DNA of 64,000 bases. Source: an uncultured Solirubrobacterales bacterium. GTDB taxonomy: Bacteria; Actinomycetota; Thermoleophilia; Solirubrobacterales; JBBDJG01. The stretch is taken from positions 5,479 to 69,478 of the forward strand of contig CAVXJX010000015.1 in NCBI GenBank assembly GCA_963762195.1. The letters run 5' to 3'. The notes beneath the pieces are model-generated. The model did no database searches. It saw only the letters and a program-made list of their open reading frames with translations, and was not told the DNA's origin. Shown here one piece after another: positions 8,061 to 15,410 of this stretch (position 1 is the first letter of the stretch; each line of letters starts with the position of its first letter). Made by a program: the position numbers and the translations under genes.

Positions 8061-8899
8061 ATGTCCCCCGAACAGCTCTCCCAGGAACGCAGGCGCGGCC
8101 TGTTCGCGGCCGTCGCCGCGATCGTGTCCGGCCTTGCGTTCGTGTCCGGCGCGATCTGGTACCAGGCCGTCAACGCCGACGCCCCGGACGGCAACGACGA
8201 GGACGCCGCACGTCCTGCGCTACTTCGACCGCACACGGCAGCGAGTACCTCGGCTGCCTCGATCCTCCAGGCCTTCGGGATCGCGCTCCTGGTGGTGGTC
8301 GCGGTCCACCTCTACCGCGCCGCCAAGGACCGCAACCCCGACCAGCCGGCGCTCGTGCTGGTCGTCGGCGTGCTTCGGGCCCGCTCGCGTTCGCGGCCAG
8401 CACGCTGATCCGCGCCGTGACCTACACGATCCTGGCCGACGACTTCGCCGGCCGCGCGGTCCAGACGGAGGCGGCCGCCGACGACCTGCTCGACACCCCG
8501 GCCCTCGACATCGCGAACGGGCTCGGTCTCACCGGGGTGCTGGCGCTCGGGTTCTGGCTCGTCAAGGGATCGCTCGACGCGATGCGCATCGGGCTGCTGA
8601 CGCGGTTCATGGGAATCATGGGGATCGCCCTCGGGCCGGCGCTCGTGCTCGGCTTCGGGCTGCTGGTGATGCCGCTGTGGCTCGTCGCGCTGGGGGTCCT
8701 GTTCCTCGGCCGCTGGCCGCGCGGCATGCCGCCTGCGTGGGTCACCGGCAGGGCGGAGCCGTGGCAGAGCGGCGCGAGTGCGCCGGACGAGAGCCGCAGG
8801 AAGCCGACCGCGGCGGGGATCGCAACGGCGAGGTGGATGCGATCGGGCGCGGCGTGCGCAAGCGGTGCCGGCTACGAGTGCGAGCCGCACGACGAATAG
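8061..8899 (+). CDS. Integral membrane protein (DUF4386-like); frameshifted
   Basis: About 6 hydrophobic helices across ORFs 8061..8408 and 8417..8899. Confidence 0.55.
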
Positions 8900-8910
8900 G
8901 CGCACGGCGA

Positions 8911-8980
8911 TCGGCCCCGGGCACGGAGGCACCCGGGGCCGATCACGCGGTCGCGTGACGCGAACGGCGTTACGCGTCAC
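8911..8980. terminator. Hairpins between the convergent membrane gene and MGYRH copy 1
   Basis: CGGCCCCGGG...CCCGGGGCCG (about 8911-8941) and GTGACGCG...CGCGTCAC (8955-8980). Confidence 0.5.
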
Positions 8981-8993
8981 CCGCAGTGTAGAA

Positions 8994-9011
8994 CTAGTGG
9001 CGGTAGCCCAT
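8994..9011 (-). CDS. Pentapeptide MGYRH, copy 1 (MxYxH biarylitide-precursor-like micro-gene)
   Basis: ATG GGC TAC CGC CAC TAG; G7 RBS 5 nt upstream; own ECF-type promoter; duplicated with one synonymous change. Confidence 0.7.
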   Translation of the reverse strand: MGYRH

Positions 9012-9049
9012 GCACACCCCCCCGATAGAACGAAGCGGACGGACGACTA

Positions 9050-9085
9050 CGACCACCAGACGGGGACCGGCGAGGCGATCTTCCC
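9050..9085 (-). promoter_or_regulatory. ECF sigma-type promoter, copy 1
   Basis: GGAAGA (9084-9079) - 16 nt - CGTCT (9062-9058), then GGTGGTCGTA. Confidence 0.7.
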
Positions 9086-9102
9086 CCTGCAAGAAAGCCC
9101 CC

Positions 9103-9136
9103 AACGAAAGAGGGGCCGCGCCGGCCCCTTTTCGTT
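9103..9136. terminator. Strong hairpin/terminator downstream of MGYRH copy 2
   Basis: AACGAAAGAGGGGCCG-CGC-CGGCCCCTTTTCGTT, near-perfect inverted repeat. Confidence 0.75.
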
Positions 9137-9170
9137 TCAAGTCTCTGTGTGTTTCGTATCTAGTGCGGTT

Positions 9171-9188
9171 CTAGTGCCGGTAGCCCAT
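9171..9188 (-). CDS. Pentapeptide MGYRH, copy 2 (MxYxH biarylitide-precursor-like micro-gene)
   Basis: ATG GGC TAC CGG CAC TAG; GGGGG RBS 5 nt upstream; own promoter and terminator. Confidence 0.7.
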   Translation of the reverse strand: MGYRH

Positions 9189-9214
9189 TGTGTCCCCCGT
9201 GTGATCGTTGCTTA

Positions 9215-9250
9215 CGACCACCAGACGGGGGAGCGGCCGGTTTTCTTCCC
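9215..9250 (-). promoter_or_regulatory. ECF sigma-type promoter, copy 2
   Basis: GGAAGA (9249-9244) - 16 nt - CGTCT (9227-9223), then GGTGGTCGTA. Confidence 0.7.
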
Positions 9251-9263
9251 TCCAGGGAAAACT

Positions 9264-9869
9264 TCAGGCGAGCGTTGCCAGGGCGCGCTCGGCGGCGGCG
9301 GTGGCGGACCCGGCGAGGTCCCGCGCGCGAACACCCGCGCGTCGGTGCTGGTGGTGCCGAGGTTGATCTCGACCAGGGTCGCCGCGGTGCGTGCTGCGCC
9401 CTGGGCCAGCAGTGCTCCGGCGACGGCATCGGCGCGCATCGCCTGCTCGCCGCGTTCCGCGACGACGGCGGCCAGCAAGGCGACGTCGACCGCGGCCTGG
9501 GCGATCTCCAGCGGGATCTGGGCCGCATGCTCGAGCAGGATCCCGAGGCCGACCTCTCCAGGCGTGTGCGCCTCGGGCTCGCCCCGGGCGACTCGTCGCG
9601 CGGGTCGCAGCCGGGCGATCGCGCGTCGCGTACGCGTCCACGTTTCGCTGGGCCAGCGGCGCGACGCGCTCGCGCAGGGTGTTGGCCTGTGCCGCGGCGC
9701 CCCTGGCCTCTCCCCACTCCCCGCGCGAGGCGCCGGCCACCATCGCGACCAGGCCCGCCGCCATGGAGAGCGAGACCGCGGCGCAGTAGCCGGCGCCCGG
9801 CATCGGCTCCGGCGTCGCGACCTCGGCCAGGAAGTCCCGCAGCGGCAGGTCGAGGAAGTCGCGGCTCAA
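9264..9869 (-). CDS. Cyclodeaminase/cyclohydrolase (FTCD C-terminal) family protein; compensating frameshifts
   Basis: FLAEVATPEPMPGAG..AA...AAGLVAMVA, then IPLEIA...RADA.AGALLA......LVEINL (frame of ORF 9212..9478); TTG start overlaps the upstream TGA. Confidence 0.75.
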   Translation of the reverse strand: MSRDFLDLPLRDFLAEVATPEPMPGAGYCAAVSLSMAAGLVAMVAGASRGEWGEARGAAAQANTLRERVAPLAQRNVDAYATRDRPAATRATSRPGRARGAHAWRGRPRDPARACGPDPAGDRPGRGRRRLAGRRRRGTRRAGDARRCRRRSTAGPGRSTHRGDPGRDQPRHHQHRRAGVRARDLAGSATAAAERALATLA

Positions 9870-12800
9870 GCCGGGATCTCCCCGCGGCGCGCCGTGATCG
9901 CGGCCGCCTCGTAGCCCTTCACCTCGGCGATGCGCAGCGCCTCCTCCGTGCTCGCGAGCGCGTCGCGCTGGCGGCCGGCAGACATGCATCACGTCGGCGT
10001 GGGCCAGCAGCGCGTCGACCTGCAGGCAGAGCCAGTCCATCGGGCGCACGACGCGCAGCGCGCGGTCGGCCGTCTCCTCCGCGAGCCGCGTCCAGCCCTC
10101 GGCGGCGAGCAGCTTCGCCCGCACGGCCAGGCGCGGAGCGTTGACGCTCGCGTCGTCGCTGGCCCACTCCTCCTTGAGCGCCTTCAGCGTCGAGTCGGCC
10201 TCCTCGAGGCGGCCCTGCGCGTACAGGGCCTCGGCGAGCGGCACCGCGGTCTCGCCGAGCGAGCTCTGCAGGCCCATCTGCGTGAGCACGTCCCAGCTCT
10301 CGCGCAGCGCGCGCTCGGCCGCCACGGCGTCACCCGCCGCCAGCTCCATGCGCCCGCGGCTGCGCTTGGACCACTGCGACATGTAGAGCAGGCCCATGTC
10401 CTCGCTGATCGCCGTCGACTCCGATCAGCGCCGCGCGCGCCTCGTCGAAGCTGCCGCGCCGCCCGAGCGCGACGCCGAGCACGTGGAGCATGTCGGCCTC
10501 CATCGCACGCATGCTGCGCTCGCGGGCGGCGGCGAGGTGCTCCTGCGCGAACGCCACCGCGCGCTCGAGGTGCGCGGGACCGTCGAGCAGGCACATCCCC
10601 ATGGCGAACGAGATCGCGTTCCAGTGGCGGGGAAAGGTGTCGGGATCGGCGTGGCGCAGCGCCTGCTCCAGCGCCTGCTGGCCATCGCTCGCACGCCCCT
10701 CGTACATGCGCGACTCGCCGAGCAGTCGCCACGCGTCGGCGAGGCCACGCTCCTCGTCGGTGTGCTCGAGCAGCCGGATCGCGCGCTCGGTCTCCTCGAC
10801 CAGCTGGGTCGCGGGGATGTCGGGATGTGCGACGAACCACACGTGCGCGCGTCCGAGGCGCGCAAGGCCCTCGATGCGCCGCTCGCCGGCAGACAGCGCC
10901 CGTTCCAGCGCCTCCTCGTAGATCTCTCCCGCCTTGGTGTGGTTCGCGGTGCCCTCCAGCGACTCGCCGATCGCCGGCAGCAGCTCGAGCCTGCCGCGCG
11001 CGGTCACCGGCAGCAGCGCTCCGGCGCGCTCCAGCAGCCCGACCGCCGCGGTGTCCTCGCGCGCGCGTGCCGCGCGCCGTCCCGCGGAGGCGAGGCGTGC
11101 GGCCGCGCGCTGTCCCAGCGCGAACGAGCGCTCGTCGACGAGGCCGAGGTCGGCGCGGTAGCGGTGGGCGCGCTCGAGGTGATGGCCGAGGATCGCCTCG
11201 ATCTCGATCATGCGCTCGGCATGGCGTTGCTCGAGCCAGTCCGCGAGCAGCTCGTGCAGCTCGGCGCGGTCCTCCTTGTTGATCGACTCGTAGGCCGCGT
11301 CACGCACGAGGATGTGGCTGAAGGCGTAGCCCGTCTCGCCCTCGAGGGTCGATTGCTCCGGCGCGACGAGCTGCTTGCGCGTGAGCGTGTCGAGCACGCT
11401 GGTGTGTCTCCCGCGCCGGCGATCGCCGCGACCGCCTCGGCCCAGAACTCGCGGCCGATCACCGAAGCGGCGCCGATGGCGCGCCGCTCGGCGACGGTGA
11501 GGCGGTCGAGGCGCGCGGCGAGCAGCGCATGGATCGTCGGCGGGACGCTGACGTCGGCGGAGTCGCCGGTCTCGCGCAGGAACGCGATCATCTGCTGAAG
11601 GAAGAGCGGGTTGCCCTCGGCGCGGGTCGTCAGCTGCTCGCGCACCTCCTCGGAGGCCGCACCCGCAGGCAGCAGCTGGCGGATCAGCGCGCGGGTGTCC
11701 TTCGGACAGCGGGCCCGAGCTCGAGCATCGAGGAGTCGTGGGTCTCGCGCGCCCACTACGGTCGTTGCTCGATCAGCTCCTGGCGCGCGAGGCAGACCAG
11801 CATCAGCGGGGCACCGGTCGTGTGCTCGAGCAGATGCTCGATCAGGTCGAGGAGCGCCGGCTCGGCCCAGTGCAGGTCCTCGAGCACGAGCACGACCGGT
11901 TGCTCACGCGCCAGCGCCGCGAACAGGTCGCGCACCGCGCCGGTCAGGTCCTCGCGGGCCGCGGTCGGCTCCTCCAGGCCGGCGGCCTGCAGGACGCGGT
12001 CGGCGAGCACGTCGGCGCGCGGGTCGTCGGCGAGGACGCTCTCGAGTGCGGCGAGCGGATCCGTCTCGCCGGCCAGCTGGCGCACGATCTCGGCCAGGGC
12101 CCAGAACGCGATCCCCTCTCCGTAGGGCAGGCATCTTCCGACGAGCACGGTGGCACGCTCGGCGAGGGTGTCGCCGACCTCGCGTGCGAGCCGCGTCTTC
12201 CCGATGCCGGCCGGGCCCATCAGGACGACGCGCTGGGGGCTGCGCTCGTAGGCCACGCGCTCGAAGGTCTCACGGAGCTGGCGCAGCTCTGGCTCGCGGC
12301 CGAGCAGTGGGCCCAGGTTCGCCGTCTGCTGCGCCGCGTGCGGACAGCCGCCAGGCCTTGAGCGGCTCCGACTTGCCGCGCACCGAGAGCGGCTCGACCT
12401 CCTCGGCCTCGACGGCGTCGCCGACAAGCCGCCGCGTCGCTTCGCCGATCAGGGTCTCTCCCGCGGCGGCGCCCTGCTGCAGGCGCGCCGCGATGTTGAC
12501 GGGGTCGCCCGTGACGAGCGCCTGGCCCGCGGACGCGTCGCCGGCCACGACCTCGCCGCTGTTGACGCCCGTGCGGATCGCGATCTGAACACCCCAGCGG
12601 CGCTGGAGCTCGCGGTTCAGCCGGGCCAGCTCCTCCTGCAGCTCGAGCGCCGCCCGCACGGCCCGGCTCGCGTGATCCTCGAGCGCCGTCGGAACTCCGA
12701 AGACCGCCATCACGGCATCCCCGATGAACTTCTCGACCGTGCCTCCGTGACGCTCGACGACCGCCGAGGCCGACTCGAAGTACCGCAGCATCACGCGCCT

Positions 12801-12977
12801 GACGGCCTCGGGCTCGATGCGTTCGCCCAGCGCAGTCGAGTCGGCGACGTCCGTGAACAGGATCGTCACCGGCTTGCGCTCGTCAGACCTCGACACCCCT
12901 CCGAGGCGCGCTCCGCATGCCATGCAGAAAGCCGCATCGGGTGGGTGCGGCTTACCGCATCTCCCGCAGCCTCCCAC
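9866..12977 (-). CDS. Class III adenylate/guanylate cyclase - AAA/STAND ATPase - TPR protein with N-terminal double zinc ribbon; several frameshifts
   Basis: CxxC...FCxxCG; TILFTDVADST, EKFIGDAVMAVFG, RTGVNSGEV, GDPVNIAARL; Walker A GPAGIGKT, Walker B VLEDLHWA, EGNPLF, FSHILVRDAAY; TPR-like helices. Confidence 0.88.
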
Positions 12978-13057
12978 GGAGCCAGTCTATGGGAGCGAAT
13001 CCGTCTACGCAGGTACTTTGCGTCGCCCGCAGGACCCTGTTCAGCCCAGCTGGGCCG

Positions 13058-13318
13058 CTAGGAGGCGGCGAGCCGCTCGCGTAGCTCGGGCAGCAGGCTC
13101 GGGTCCACGTTGTACCCGGCCTGCTCCAGCGCCACCTCGAGGTTGGCGATCGCGGCGGCCCGGAAGTCCGCATCTTCCTGTGCCCGCTGGGCGATCTGGT
13201 CGATCTCCAGCCGGGCCTGCGGCATTTCCTGGGCTGCTTTGACCCATCCTTCGGGGGCGGGCGGCAGCATTCTCAGCAGCGAAGCCAAGCGTTCCTCGTC
13301 GTATCTCTCAGTGGTCAT
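13058..13318 (-). CDS. Small soluble protein (86 aa) directly downstream of ECF sigma; possible anti-sigma or partner
   Basis: GAGGT RBS; MTTERYDEERLASLLRMLPPAPEGWVKAAQEMP; start 1 nt after the sigma stop. Confidence 0.7.
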   Translation of the reverse strand: MTTERYDEERLASLLRMLPPAPEGWVKAAQEMPQARLEIDQIAQRAQEDADFRAAAIANLEVALEQAGYNVDPSLLPELRERLAAS

Positions 13319-13319
13319 C

Positions 13320-13889
13320 TCAATTACCTCGACCATCAGACGGCTCGAACCGGGGTTTTCTTCCCTCGAGTTCCGATCGCATTTTTCGCAGGCAGCGGGA
13401 GATCCGGCTGGCGATCGTACCCGGAGGCAGCTCGAGCGCCTCGCCGATCGCGTGATAGCTCTGGTCGCGGGCGAAGAACCGGTCCAGGATCTCGGCACAG
13501 TGCTCCGGCAGCTGCTTCAGGGCCTCGTGCACCATCAGGGCCTCGTCGATCTGCGCCAGCTCGTCGTTGGGGTCCTCGATCTCGAGATCGTGCTCCGCGG
13601 GGAGCTCCCGGGAGGAGGAACGCAGCTTGTCCACGCACAGCCGCCGCGTCAGGGTCCCGATCCAGGGCCGCACCGCGGTGTCGTCGCGCAGCTCGTCGAG
13701 GTGCTGCCAGGTCCGCGTGAAGACGTCCTGGAAGACGTCTTCGGCGTCGTCGTTCTGCAGGCGGTAGACCCGCGAGGCGATCGCATAGACGTAGCGCGAG
13801 AAGCGGTTGACCAGTTCGTCCCACGCCTGCTGGTCGCCCTTTCTACAGCGGGCGACAAGATCGGCGTCGGCGACCGTCGCAAGTGACAT
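13320..13889 (-). CDS. ECF (group 4) sigma-70 factor
   Basis: DADLVARC..GDQQAWDELV, DAEDVFQDVF, region 4 SY..IGEALELPPGTIASRISRCL. Confidence 0.92.
   Translation of the reverse strand: MSLATVADADLVARCRKGDQQAWDELVNRFSRYVYAIASRVYRLQNDDAEDVFQDVFTRTWQHLDELRDDTAVRPWIGTLTRRLCVDKLRSSSRELPAEHDLEIEDPNDELAQIDEALMVHEALKQLPEHCAEILDRFFARDQSYHAIGEALELPPGTIASRISRCLRKMRSELEGRKPRFEPSDGRGN
13330..13368 (-). promoter_or_regulatory. ECF sigma-type promoter, copy 3 (inside the 3' end of the sigma gene)
   Basis: GAGGGAAGAAAACC...; GGAAGA (13364-13359) - 16 nt - CGTCT (13342-13338), then GATGGTCG. Confidence 0.65.
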
Positions 13890-13973
13890 TACCCAGCTAT
13901 GAAACCACGTTCGACACTGTGTCGGCAAGCGCGGGGCCCGAATTGGCGCGCGGCATTTCCCTGCAAATGGTGC

Positions 13974-15410
13974 TTACGGGACGAAAATGCCCTGCCGCAG
14001 GAACACCTGGTTGGGCTGCGTCGCGGTGTCACCGTCGGGACCGCCGTCGATCACCTGCACCTGGGACAGCTCCACGACCGAGCGCCGGCCTTCGACGATC
14101 GGGCCGGGAATCAGTGTGTCGAGGGTGGTCGTAAGGGAGCACGTCGAGCCGACGTTGGTGGCGACCGTGGGGGTGCACTGGGTAGTGAACAGCAACTGAA
14201 CTTCCGTCGACGTCATCGGCACGCCCGCGTAGCGATCGGTGATGCGCGCACTGGCCTGCGCAGCGACCTCACCCGCGTAGTCGGCGAGCGTTCCCTGTTC
14301 GCTCACGTCGCTGATCTCCATCCGTAGCGCAATATCGGCTTCGTCCTCCGGCGTGGTCGGGTTGCCGGTCACGGTCCGGTAACTCACGAAGCTGTTCGCC
14401 GAGGTACCGACGGTCAGATGACCGGACTCCTGCGCAGGCGGGTTGCACGATCCGACCGCAAGCGGTGGCCCGTGTTGGCGGTTGGGCACGGTGCACTGGC
14501 GATAGCCCGGCACGAGCGAGACGCGCATGGGGGATGCCCCCTTCGGACGAATGTGGCCCGGGTAGGGAACGGGCTGCCAGCTCGGCTGCGACTCGAAGTC
14601 TGAACCGCTGGTGAGGCGCGTCGGGCTCGTGCCGTCTGCGTTCATCGTGTAGACCTTGCTGTTCGACTGGAACGCGATCTTCGTGCCGTCCGGCGACCAG
14701 ACGGGTTGAACGTCCCTGGCTGCGCCGTTTGTGAGGCGCAATGGTGGGGAGCCGGACCCCGCGTACACGTAGATCTCCAGGTTTTGGTTATCCCCTGGGG
14801 CATAAGACGAGTACACGATCTTGCTGCCGTCCGGTGAGTAGTCGGGGTCGATTCCGTAGGGGAAGACGATGACGCGCTCGTCGGTGCCGTCGGGCTGCAC
14901 GGTGCGGAGCTGTCCTTCGCCACCGTTCGCGTTTGTCGCGTTGAACGCGATCAGGGATCCATCGGGCCGCCACGACGCGCCTGACCCGAACGCAATGCGC
15001 TGGCGCGCGGACCCATCTGCCGATGCGGTGTAAAGCTCGATGAAGAGTGGGTCCATCCCGTTGCCAGTGACCGAGGTCGCGGCGATCTGTGACCCGTTCG
15101 GTGACCAGGCGGGCGATCCCCACGTCTGGCCTCCGCCCGCGTCCTGCCATGCACCGTCCAACACTACGGTCTCACTGCTGCCGTCTGCCGGCATCCGCCT
15201 GACGTCATCCTCGTGGGAGAAGAGCAGGTCACGGCCGTTGGGCGACCACGCGGGCGTGTGTCCCGACCGCACCGTCGACTGTCCTGTGCCGTCGGGGTTG
15301 ATCGTCTTGATCACCGGCGGGAACGTCGTGCTGACGGTGAACGCGATCTTCCCGTTCTGGCCAGGGAAGGCGGCGTGCGCCGGAGGCGCCCACGCCCCGA
15401 GGGCTAACAA
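13974..15410 (-). CDS. Secreted TolB-like PD40 beta-propeller protein with Cys-containing C-terminal domain
   Basis: Signal peptide AHA-AFPG.NGKIAF; repeated WSPDG.KI; C-terminus FLRQGIFVP; true start probably slightly upstream. Confidence 0.8.
   Translation of the reverse strand: MLALGAWAPPAHAAFPGQNGKIAFTVSTTFPPVIKTINPDGTGQSTVRSGHTPAWSPNGRDLLFSHEDDVRRMPADGSSETVVLDGAWQDAGGGQTWGSPAWSPNGSQIAATSVTGNGMDPLFIELYTASADGSARQRIAFGSGASWRPDGSLIAFNATNANGGEGQLRTVQPDGTDERVIVFPYGIDPDYSPDGSKIVYSSYAPGDNQNLEIYVYAGSGSPPLRLTNGAARDVQPVWSPDGTKIAFQSNSKVYTMNADGTSPTRLTSGSDFESQPSWQPVPYPGHIRPKGASPMRVSLVPGYRQCTVPNRQHGPPLAVGSCNPPAQESGHLTVGTSANSFVSYRTVTGNPTTPEDEADIALRMEISDVSEQGTLADYAGEVAAQASARITDRYAGVPMTSTEVQLLFTTQCTPTVATNVGSTCSLTTTLDTLIPGPIVEGRRSVVELSQVQVIDGGPDGDTATQPNQVFLRQGIFVP

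Follow-up and report, generated by a model that had tools for sequence, protein, structure and literature searches.

In a window of 64,000 nucleotides (the whole stretch of DNA that was analysed) from contig CAVXJX010000015.1 of an uncultured Solirubrobacterales bacterium (assembly GCA_963762195.1), the last codons of a gene for an extracytoplasmic function (ECF) sigma factor contain a two-block motif, GGAAGA-N16-CGTC, which is very probably a promoter read by that same sigma factor, and which would drive the genes downstream of it but not the sigma gene. Read 5′ to 3′ on the minus strand, the locus consists of the sigma gene with its internal copy of the motif (copy 3), a gene for a small partner protein that we call p85, a cyclase-STAND-TPR gene, an FTCD_C gene and two short units, A and B. 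Each of these units has a further copy of the motif (copies 2 and 1, respectively) ahead of an open reading frame (ORF) of only five codons, a minigene encoding M-G-Y-R-H.

In its longer form, GGAAGA-N16-CGTCTGRTGGTCG, the motif has exactly three matches in the 64-kb window when up to two mismatches are allowed; all are on the minus strand, identically spaced and free of mismatches (Table 1), and 100 dinucleotide-preserving shuffles gave none. The initial annotation of this DNA was right in describing these three copies, in seeing that copies 2 and 3 have GAGGGAAGAAAACC in common, and in placing the third within the final codons of the sigma ORF and not upstream of it, where the frame reads ...L-E-G-R-K-P-R-F-E-P-S-D-G-R-G-N-stop. 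Both of the MGYRH ORFs that it named are real. Its extended motif has to be divided, since only GGGAAGA-N16-CGTC and a weak nnGT are conserved at every site; the TGGTGGTCG tail is kept solely ahead of the minigenes, around or after the predicted transcription start, where it belongs to the leader or discriminator. ECF promoters commonly have a GGAAC-like -35 and a CGT-containing -10 block that are 16-17 nt apart, and the GGAAGA-N16-CGTC core, with a spacer that is fixed in all 78 loci described below, has this two-block form.

The source genome (18 contigs, 2.87 Mb, 75.7% complete, 69% G+C) contains five exact copies of the motif, the three of the window and two on another contig, C7. Each copy on C7 is followed by another MGYRH ORF, all four MGYRH ORFs of the genome thus having the motif upstream, and the C7 units sit among unrelated, convergent or divergent genes. 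A position weight matrix (PWM) built from the -35 and -10 blocks of 44 distinct sites ranked the five known sites first in the assembly (33.1, 33.1, 32.5, 23.1 and 23.0), with a maximum of 16.4 in the reversed-genome control. The regulon is therefore small yet not confined to the sigma locus, because two of its units lie on another contig; of the local regulon that had been proposed, the partner operon and both MGYRH genes of the window do stand behind the motif, and the restriction to one locus does not hold. In five more complete genomes of the family to which the source genome belongs (the host family), the motif matches were minigene units or the sigma-internal site, plus about one stray match per genome, which is approximately the control rate (32 motif matches in total versus 5 control matches). 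This suggests that the host-family regulon consists of the p85 operon and the minigenes. Three further sites in the source genome score above the control maximum (C2:175647-175690, minus strand, 22.3; C9:54727-54770, minus strand, 21.4; C5:45194-45237, plus strand, 19.7); the C9 site opens with TTCGAGGGAAGAAAG, resembling the tail of the sigma gene, but has TGTC in place of CGTC.

The sigma and p85 genes are adjacent in 16 of 18 host-family genomes (counts which include an unpublished genome, G052), and in the first 14 of these loci that we examined the sigma gene ends in CTCGAGGGAAGAAA...CCGTC. Among GTDB species representatives, a p85 profile found 255 loci; the 80 best of these belong to metagenome-assembled genomes of Solirubrobacterales and Gaiellales, and sigma orthologues (54-97% identity) lie immediately upstream of the partner gene in 74 of these 80. 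Across these two orders, GGAAGA is present within the 130 nt before p85 in 78 of the 80 best loci, and in 78 of 78 it is followed after exactly 16 nt by [C/A/G]GTC (72 CGTC, 4 AGTC and 2 GGTC). The motif and its spacer length are thus kept at orthologous loci, and comparative evidence supports the earlier proposal that the copies are promoters of the adjacent sigma factor, driving the partner operon and the MGYRH genes.

It might be argued that the copies are not promoters at all, the internal one being kept for the L-E-G-R-K-P tail of the protein and the others being recent duplicates of a repeated element. E-G-R is indeed also conserved as protein (E175 and G176 in at least 90% of 44 sequences), so that coding constraint contributes and the sigma-internal site alone is not conclusive, and near-identical copies of the units do occur within some genomes, for example G057. 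However, the codons used at the internal site are rare ones (GGA for 18 of 117 Gly, AGA for 3 of 91 Arg, AAA for 2 of 41 Lys and TCT for 2 of 85 Ser, as counted in three ORFs of the window), and the invariance of GGA, AGA and AAA, in which the -35 block is written, would not be expected from protein constraint and argues for a constraint on the DNA as well. All 78 loci keep the 16-nt distance to CGTC, although the sequence of the spacer and the tail residues encoded after E-G-R vary, and in some loci CGTC overlaps the stop codon. In the short units, likewise, both hexamer blocks are kept and variation falls in the 16-nt spacer between them, types A and B keep the blocks despite unrelated leaders and terminators, and the blocks also precede unrelated genes in Gaiellales. 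We consider it extremely improbable that the copies are anything other than promoters.

The positions of start codons are informative in this respect: a distance of 8-12 nt separates CGTC from the p85 start codon in most Gaiellales-type loci, and in a second small-gene family (..ARxRHADLLREA..) the start lies 11 nt after CGTC, distances that fit leaderless mRNAs beginning at the expected ECF-type start site. In distant lineages both blocks recur on both strands around the sigma gene, ahead of other genes. The motif-preceded, uncharacterised genes of Gaiellales and other Thermoleophilia (loci L119-L188 and L219-L223) encode acidic small proteins with DVE(G/A)H repeats, proteins of 57-68 aa with ..RHADLLREA.., often leaderless, exported proteins of about 190-220 aa with the N-terminus M-K/E-Y/F-R-R-R, and 21-aa ORFs starting MR[YHI]RYRR. 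None of 13 regulon proteins from Gaiellales loci belongs to a Pfam family.

The motif also co-occurs with p85. In a class-wide sample of 201 genomes, searched with GGGAAGA-N16-CGTCNNGT and with the p85 profile, the 32 p85-positive genomes hold 74 of 101 motif matches (2.3 per genome; 29 of the 32 have at least one) and the 169 p85-negative genomes hold 27 (0.16 per genome), a rate close to that of a reversed-pattern control in the same 201 genomes (31 matches, 0.15 per genome). In family f4, matches number 2 and 3 in the two p85-positive genomes, against a single match in the 15 p85-negative genomes together.

Several points weigh against our reading that the adjacent sigma factor reads this promoter. 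We infer the reader of the motif solely from linkage and co-occurrence; three p85-positive genomes have no match to the strict pattern, and two genomes of family f9 without a p85 match still carry two motif matches each. The co-occurrence is phylogenetically clustered, with most p85-positive genomes in family f9, so the 32 genomes are not independent observations. The -35 block has GGAAG where the ECF consensus has GGAAC, and so differs at the fifth base. At a first look the source genome has 24 sigma-70-family or ECF candidates, and an ECF-like sigma gene of 322 aa with a C-terminal extension (C7:81281-82249, minus strand) is some 0.8 kb away from a dispersed minigene unit. The motif could thus be an ECF promoter read by one of these other sigma factors, with the neighbouring sigma gene as its target or as a bystander. 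We regard this as very unlikely: 78 of 80 loci carry the motif within this sigma gene itself, distant lineages have it clustered on both strands near the gene, and it falls to control level where p85 is absent, so that an alternative reader would need to have the same patchy distribution.

Judged by its domains, the sigma factor that we favour as the reader is an ordinary ECF which is claimed by no curated subfamily. Sigma70_r2 covers residues 26-94 and Sigma70_r4 residues 123-171, in agreement with the description of ECF (group 4) sigma factors as proteins of about 170-220 aa with sigma2 and sigma4 domains only. The NCBIfam model TIGR02937 (sigma70-ECF) gives 85.1 bits (cut-off 42.9). Among the equivalog and subfamily models of NCBIfam, none reaches its cut-off with this protein, the best being PRK09645 (87.7 versus 202). 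Across 44 orthologues the cysteines C15, C131 and C166 are invariant and C85 is present in at least 90%. These residues are spread over sigma2 and sigma4, and they could serve metal, Fe-S or redox control of the sigma factor itself.

As stated in PMC7826278, ECFs ‘usually autoregulate their own expression’, although non-autoregulated groups exist. Positive autoregulation from an upstream promoter, a typical but not obligatory property of ECFs, is not a property of the present sigma gene as far as its upstream DNA is concerned. In 15 host-family loci GGAAGA-N16-CGTC is absent upstream of sigma, and the PWM scan shows no site elsewhere in the vicinity of the gene; of 73 wider loci, 69 have no same-strand motif within 1.2 kb upstream. 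Among the other four, the motif lies about 750-820 nt upstream of sigma in three, ahead of an exported-protein gene which precedes it, and in one the match from the upstream search falls inside the sigma gene. A different conserved element, GTGGTTTCATAGC, stands just before the sigma start codon in the host family (Table 1), and is a candidate non-ECF promoter element which would give a nearly leaderless sigma mRNA. The suggestion of the initial annotation that this sigma factor does not autoregulate fits both observations. Loci of the host genus also have a box, TTGCAGGGAAA(A/T)G, some 75 nt ahead of sigma (13930-13950, minus strand). It is like the TTGCAGGGGGAAGATCG found before unit B, but no CGTC follows at the appropriate distance, and it may be a relic or a weak -35. 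In several Gaiellales loci (L130, L138, L140, L144, L155, L171-L173) a putative divergent promoter (the reverse complement of GGGAAGATTACG..CGTC) overlaps the region of the sigma start codon, making transcriptional interference with sigma expression possible.

Structure prediction suggests that p85 is probably the cognate, short and soluble anti-sigma factor. With alignments of 44 rows for sigma and 45 rows for p85, a complex was predicted with an ipSAE of 0.82 in three runs, the best of three controls reaching 0.00; this ipSAE mark is reached by 116 of 157 solved complexes and by 2 of 215 mismatched pairs, a calibration which is only roughly valid here, as the alignments were our own, and this counts against too firm a conclusion. 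The runs had at least 96% of contacts in common, with a partner pLDDT of at least 85, and in the predicted interface p85 residues 4-35 lie against sigma residues 18-61 and 113-175, that is, against both sigma domains. By profile search the closest solved relatives of the sigma factor are 6in7, 5wuq, 2q1z and 1or7 (E 8e-18 to 2e-16), so that on the sigma side the PDB does offer ECF/anti-sigma complexes; by sequence p85 has no solved relative. The 234 homologues of p85 in metagenomes are mostly labelled hypothetical or unnamed, the few generic labels among them being none of them meaningful, and p85 is conserved over its full length (mean column identity 69%). It has no transmembrane part, and its aligned sequences contain no Cys. 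Class I anti-sigma factors have a recognisable anti-sigma domain family, often with an H-x3-C-x2-C zinc motif; neither zf-HC2, RskA nor any other anti-sigma domain of Pfam or NCBIfam was found in p85, which places it outside that class.

In its residues 38-83, p85 is similar to the NHLP leader and to the N-terminal part of nitrile hydratase alpha. We considered a role for p85 as precursor of a ribosomally synthesised and post-translationally modified peptide (RiPP) and rejected it: the scores lie below the cut-offs (PF14407 26.3/48, NF038399 25.1/40, TIGR03793 16.6/50.9), there is no variable core-like tail, and binding to sigma is predicted for the protein. The annotated neighbours of p85 include no maturase genes.

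We propose a circuit in which the sigma gene would itself be transcribed from a different, non-ECF promoter, and in which its product would recognise a core target promoter of GGGAAGA, a 16-nt spacer and CGTC, often then nnGT. The last codons of sigma (L-E-G-R-K-P-R-F-E-P-S) would double as such a promoter, starting the transcription of p85, the N-terminal 35 residues of which would clamp sigma domains 2 and 4. Since this promoter drives p85 but not sigma, active sigma would raise its own inhibitor without raising itself, and the outcome would be negative feedback without positive autoregulation. In the host family the transcript from the sigma-internal promoter would also cover the cyclase-STAND-TPR and FTCD_C genes. 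In the source genome the motif would in addition fire four free-standing short units, a tandem pair where the operon ends and two more on C7, each made of a 30-45 nt leader, a ribosome-binding site, the five-codon ORF M-G-Y-R-H and a terminator.

Table 1. Features of the sigma locus in the window (all on the minus strand; promoter and anti-sigma assignments are predictions)
Feature	Positions	Strand	Basis and remarks
Conserved element GTGGTTTCATAGC, candidate	13896..13908	-	5-9 nt before sigma start codon; alignment of 15 host-family loci
ECF sigma factor gene, 189 aa	13320..13889	-	Pfam Sigma70_r2 (E 2.9e-13) and Sigma70_r4; TIGR02937
Predicted promoter copy 3, in the last codons of the sigma gene	13330..13364	-	-35 GGAAGA 13359-13364; -10 CGTC 13339-13342
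Partner gene p85, 86 aa with Met; candidate soluble anti-sigma with C-terminal NHLP-like helical region	13058..13318	-	Adjoins sigma; predicted complex
Zinc-ribbon + adenylate/guanylate cyclase + AAA_16 (STAND) + TPR gene	9866..12977	-	Pfam; split over 5 reading-frame segments
FTCD_C (cyclodeaminase/cyclohydrolase-like) gene, frameshifted	9264..9869	-	Pfam PF04961, E 8e-9
Predicted promoter copy 2 (unit A)	9215..9249	-	-35 9244-9249; CGTC 9224-9227; PWM score 33.1
Five-codon ORF MGYRH, unit A	9171..9188	-	Ribosome-binding site GGGGGA 6 nt upstream
Putative intrinsic terminator, unit A: GC-rich hairpin then CUCUUUCGUU	9100..9136	-	Fold; same layout in other units
Predicted promoter copy 1 (unit B)	9050..9084	-	-35 9079-9084; CGTC 9059-9062; PWM score 23.0
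Five-codon ORF MGYRH, unit B	8994..9011	-	Sequence
Two strong hairpins ending unit B (8955-8980, 8907-8946)	8907..8980	-	Facing convergent gene ending at 8899

Of 15 host-family loci, 11 have an intact cyclase gene (about 1033 aa), and an intact form of the FTCD_C gene in G007 encodes 195 aa and ends just ahead of the unit A promoter. Compared with two relatives, the cyclase and FTCD_C genes of the source genome contain eight single-base indels that are private to it; sigma and p85 are free of them. They lie near 12345, 12334, 11711, 11404, 10425, 9982, 9625 and 9332, none of them in a long homopolymer, and neighbouring ORFs of 680 aa and 478 aa are intact; the eight may reflect either gene decay or local assembly error.

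In the host family, a search for the promoter followed by RTGGGNTWY gave 46 matches in 12 of 18 genomes, of which two are false positives in coding sequence, and none in controls. The two host-family genomes that lack sigma and p85 have no minigene match. It is a point against our reading that four sigma-bearing genomes (G047, G081, G072 and G027) have no promoter-plus-minigene match; G072 is 58% complete, with the locus cut by a contig end, and G027 has an MGYRN unit with a 17-nt spacer and a long leader, outside the main search pattern. The ORF has exactly five codons, M-G-[Y/F]-R-x, in 43 of 45 distinct sequences: MGYRN in 17 units, MGYRH in 16, MGYRK in 5, MGYRR in 2, MGFRR in 2 and MGFRS in 1, the MGYRR units and one MGFRR unit coming from the unpublished genome. 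Beyond these 43 are two MGYRK units with a GGTC -10 and the MGYRN unit of G027, and one unit of G067 resembles MGFRR with a 1-nt deletion. The minigenes of the window are 18 nt long, ATG GGC TAC CGS CAC TAG, with leaders of 31 nt (unit A) and 43 nt (unit B). Across the family they have a ribosome-binding site, GGGGGA or GAGGGGA, 6-9 nt upstream and a TAG or TAA stop, and there are 3-8 units per genome. A strict MGYRH-TAG pattern, applied to 201 genomes of the order, is found in only 3 genomes of one genus, and undercounts because the peptide varies; a class-wide search of 401 genomes with an over-strict ribosome-binding-site pattern matched one of the four copies in the source genome itself, and is uninformative on absence.

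Within the units it is the ORF and the two promoter blocks that are constrained. The codon variants are GGC/GGT, TAC/TAT, TTC/TTT, CGC/CGG/AGG and TAG/TAA, and at codons 2-4 four of five variable sites are synonymous, the fifth being a conservative Tyr/Phe exchange. Leaders and trailers are free to differ in both sequence and length, and unit types A and B have the same ORF and the same two promoter blocks with unrelated leaders and terminators. Every unit has a GC-rich hairpin and U-rich tail 20-45 nt past the stop codon; the hairpins of unit B fold with -79.7 kcal/mol (z -3.12), and none of 200 shuffles folds as well. Unit A of the source genome has a private 16-nt insertion directly past the stop (approximately 9155-9171, minus strand), which repeats the end of the ORF (..CACTAGAACCGCACTAG..).

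These properties bear on the alternative that the short units are small regulatory RNAs, or decaying 5′ remnants of larger sigma-dependent genes, in which the ORF is incidental. In Gaiellales the promoter and a leader of about 40 nt do precede full-length exported proteins starting M-K-Y/F-R-R, and many units have an A/C-rich stretch with AGACTT(G/C)AA after the stop codon. (A genomic-complement search for the conserved AGACTTGAA trailer was symmetric by design, and so is uninformative.) An incidental ORF is, however, hard to reconcile with 43 units all of exactly five codons, with the largely synonymous variation in codons 2-4 while the flanking leader and trailer are free to vary, with the sharing of the ORF but not of the flanking RNA by types A and B, or with 3-8 copies per genome and no Rfam family match, and we think the alternative unlikely. 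On this pattern of variation the minigenes are probably translated, and selected at the level of the peptide or of its translation. The layout of the minigenes (promoter, leader of about 40 nt, ribosome-binding site) is like that at the 5′ ends of the Gaiellales exported-protein genes, and the coding starts can be compared, ATG AAG TAC CGG AGA... in the latter and ATG GGT TAC CGG AAC TAG in the minigenes. The minigenes may thus descend from such exported-protein genes, although their fixed length, copy number and selection pattern argue that they now persist in their own right. A riboswitch or other known RNA was considered and rejected, as Rfam 15 gives only three chance-level matches in 8700-14100 (18-23 bits versus gathering thresholds of 40-123). 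Nor do the units look like a leader peptide or attenuator encoded by an upstream ORF, which would share its transcript with a regulated downstream gene: they end in a strong hairpin, and the C7 units sit among unrelated genes.

In the host genus the fifth residue is uniform across all copies within each genome: His in the source genome (4 units), G057 (8) and G007 (4); Lys in G022 (4) and G032 (3); and Asn in G042 (5) and G062 (4). Outside the genus it is Asn in G001 (4 units) and G017 (3), Arg in G052 (3) and mixed in G067. The type A and type B units of the locus agree in this residue in 7 of 7 genomes of the genus. In a locus tree G042 (Asn) is sister to the source genome (His), with G057 (His) next, and an unresolved node unites G007 (His) with G062 (Asn). 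This implies two or more switches between His and Asn, and each switch hit both the type A and the type B locus units. Such joint switching points to either concerted evolution or selection for a uniform peptide. We looked along the locus, from sigma to FTCD_C, for columns that split His from Asn genomes, and found 30, which is within the 16-43 of other tree-incongruent splits, in a comparison of low power.

We suggest, tentatively and with rather more doubt than confidence, that fMet-Gly-Tyr/Phe-Arg-X is the main product of the sigma response and that the peptide, or the making of it, is the effector. By one route the peptide could be a directly encoded ligand, with the TPR-STAND cyclase, p85 or a partner elsewhere as candidate receptors; by another it could act at the level of translation, by loading ribosomes or one tRNA species. 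By either route the fifth residue would be a lineage-specific determinant of specificity, which would explain why all copies switch together among His, Asn, Lys and Arg. The cyclase is attractive as a receptor because the minigenes and the cyclase extension of the operon are both limited to the host family. This role is weakened by the frameshifts in the cyclase of the source genome, where the minigenes are intact, and also by genus g5, which has the cyclase but no units. A role at the level of translation would explain the uniform last codon, but not obviously the conserved M-G-Y/F-R.

From the distribution of its sequences, the module is class-wide in uncultured soil Thermoleophilia, and the pentapeptide minigenes appear to be the main output of the sigma factor in the host family, an output without a described counterpart. 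Bacteria use ECF sigma factors as a major means of signalling, and the regulons of these factors are usually predicted from autoregulated upstream promoters. A promoter inside the sigma gene would break this rule, and searches for motifs that are restricted to upstream DNA would label such sigma factors ‘motif-less’. To drive the predicted anti-sigma factor, often as a leaderless mRNA, and to leave sigma unregulated by itself would be a clean design for negative feedback. The regulon of the host family would be almost wholly one of multi-copy, five-codon genes under selection at the amino-acid level. If they are translated and functional, the minigenes push the minimum size of conserved genes further down; no shorter family of conserved protein-coding genes with transcription of its own would be known to us, and the minigenes would be a new kind of sigma-factor output, and the effect in the cell of a dedicated, stress-inducible pentapeptide, or of its synthesis, would become a testable question.

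In print we found nothing on MGYRH-type peptides, PF14407-linked sigma factors or Thermoleophilia ECF systems, and one of the supplementary text files of PMC7826278 has no match to PF14407, NHLP, Guanylate_cyc, Conexibacter or Thermoleophilia. The system can nevertheless be set beside several known ones. Like E. coli RpoE-RseA, B. subtilis SigW-RsiW and R. sphaeroides RpoE-ChrR, it has a two-domain sigma factor beside a small inhibitor that is predicted to sit between the domains, and like other ECF modules it has a two-block promoter with a CGTC -10 and a 16-nt spacer. Unlike the usual ECF module, it has its predicted sigma-dependent promoter inside the sigma gene, where it would drive only downstream genes, a sigma factor without apparent autoregulation, and a short soluble partner without a known anti-sigma domain. 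CnrY and NepR are short ‘class II’ anti-sigma factors, and CnrH is among the structure matches of our sigma factor (4cxf). As in these class II proteins, a stretch of about 30 residues of p85 (4-35) is predicted to contact sigma2 and sigma4. Unlike CnrY and NepR, to which it has no detectable sequence relationship, p85 has in addition a C-terminal, NHLP-like helical region. To the NHLP or ‘Frankia_peptide’ (PF14407) proteins, which are like RiPP precursors, p85 is similar in its residues 38-83, with all scores below the curated cut-offs.

The minigenes themselves invite two comparisons. Toxic minigenes such as phage lambda bar load ribosomes and release peptidyl-tRNA. They are ORFs of 2-8 codons with their own ribosome-binding site and stop, a form that the pentapeptide units have as well. 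Minigenes known so far are phage, plasmid or engineered elements, as in the reports on engineered ORFs of 3-8 codons (PMC2490762) and on axe-txe (PMC8708949). Those described here differ in being chromosomal and multi-copy, in having an amino-acid sequence that is conserved throughout a bacterial family, and in that each unit has a dedicated, predicted sigma-dependent promoter and a terminator. In RRNPP-type and arbitrium signalling, a TPR receptor is paired with a peptide of 5-7 residues that is cut from a secreted precursor. Our system departs from these in that the ORF has five codons only, without an export signal and hence without a secreted precursor, and in that the TPR protein is a cyclase-STAND fusion, frameshifted in the source genome, with no signal of co-variation at the locus. 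It is like them in that a pentapeptide is encoded beside a sensor protein containing TPRs; and, as in pherotypes, the last residue of the peptide is uniform within a genome and differs between close relatives.

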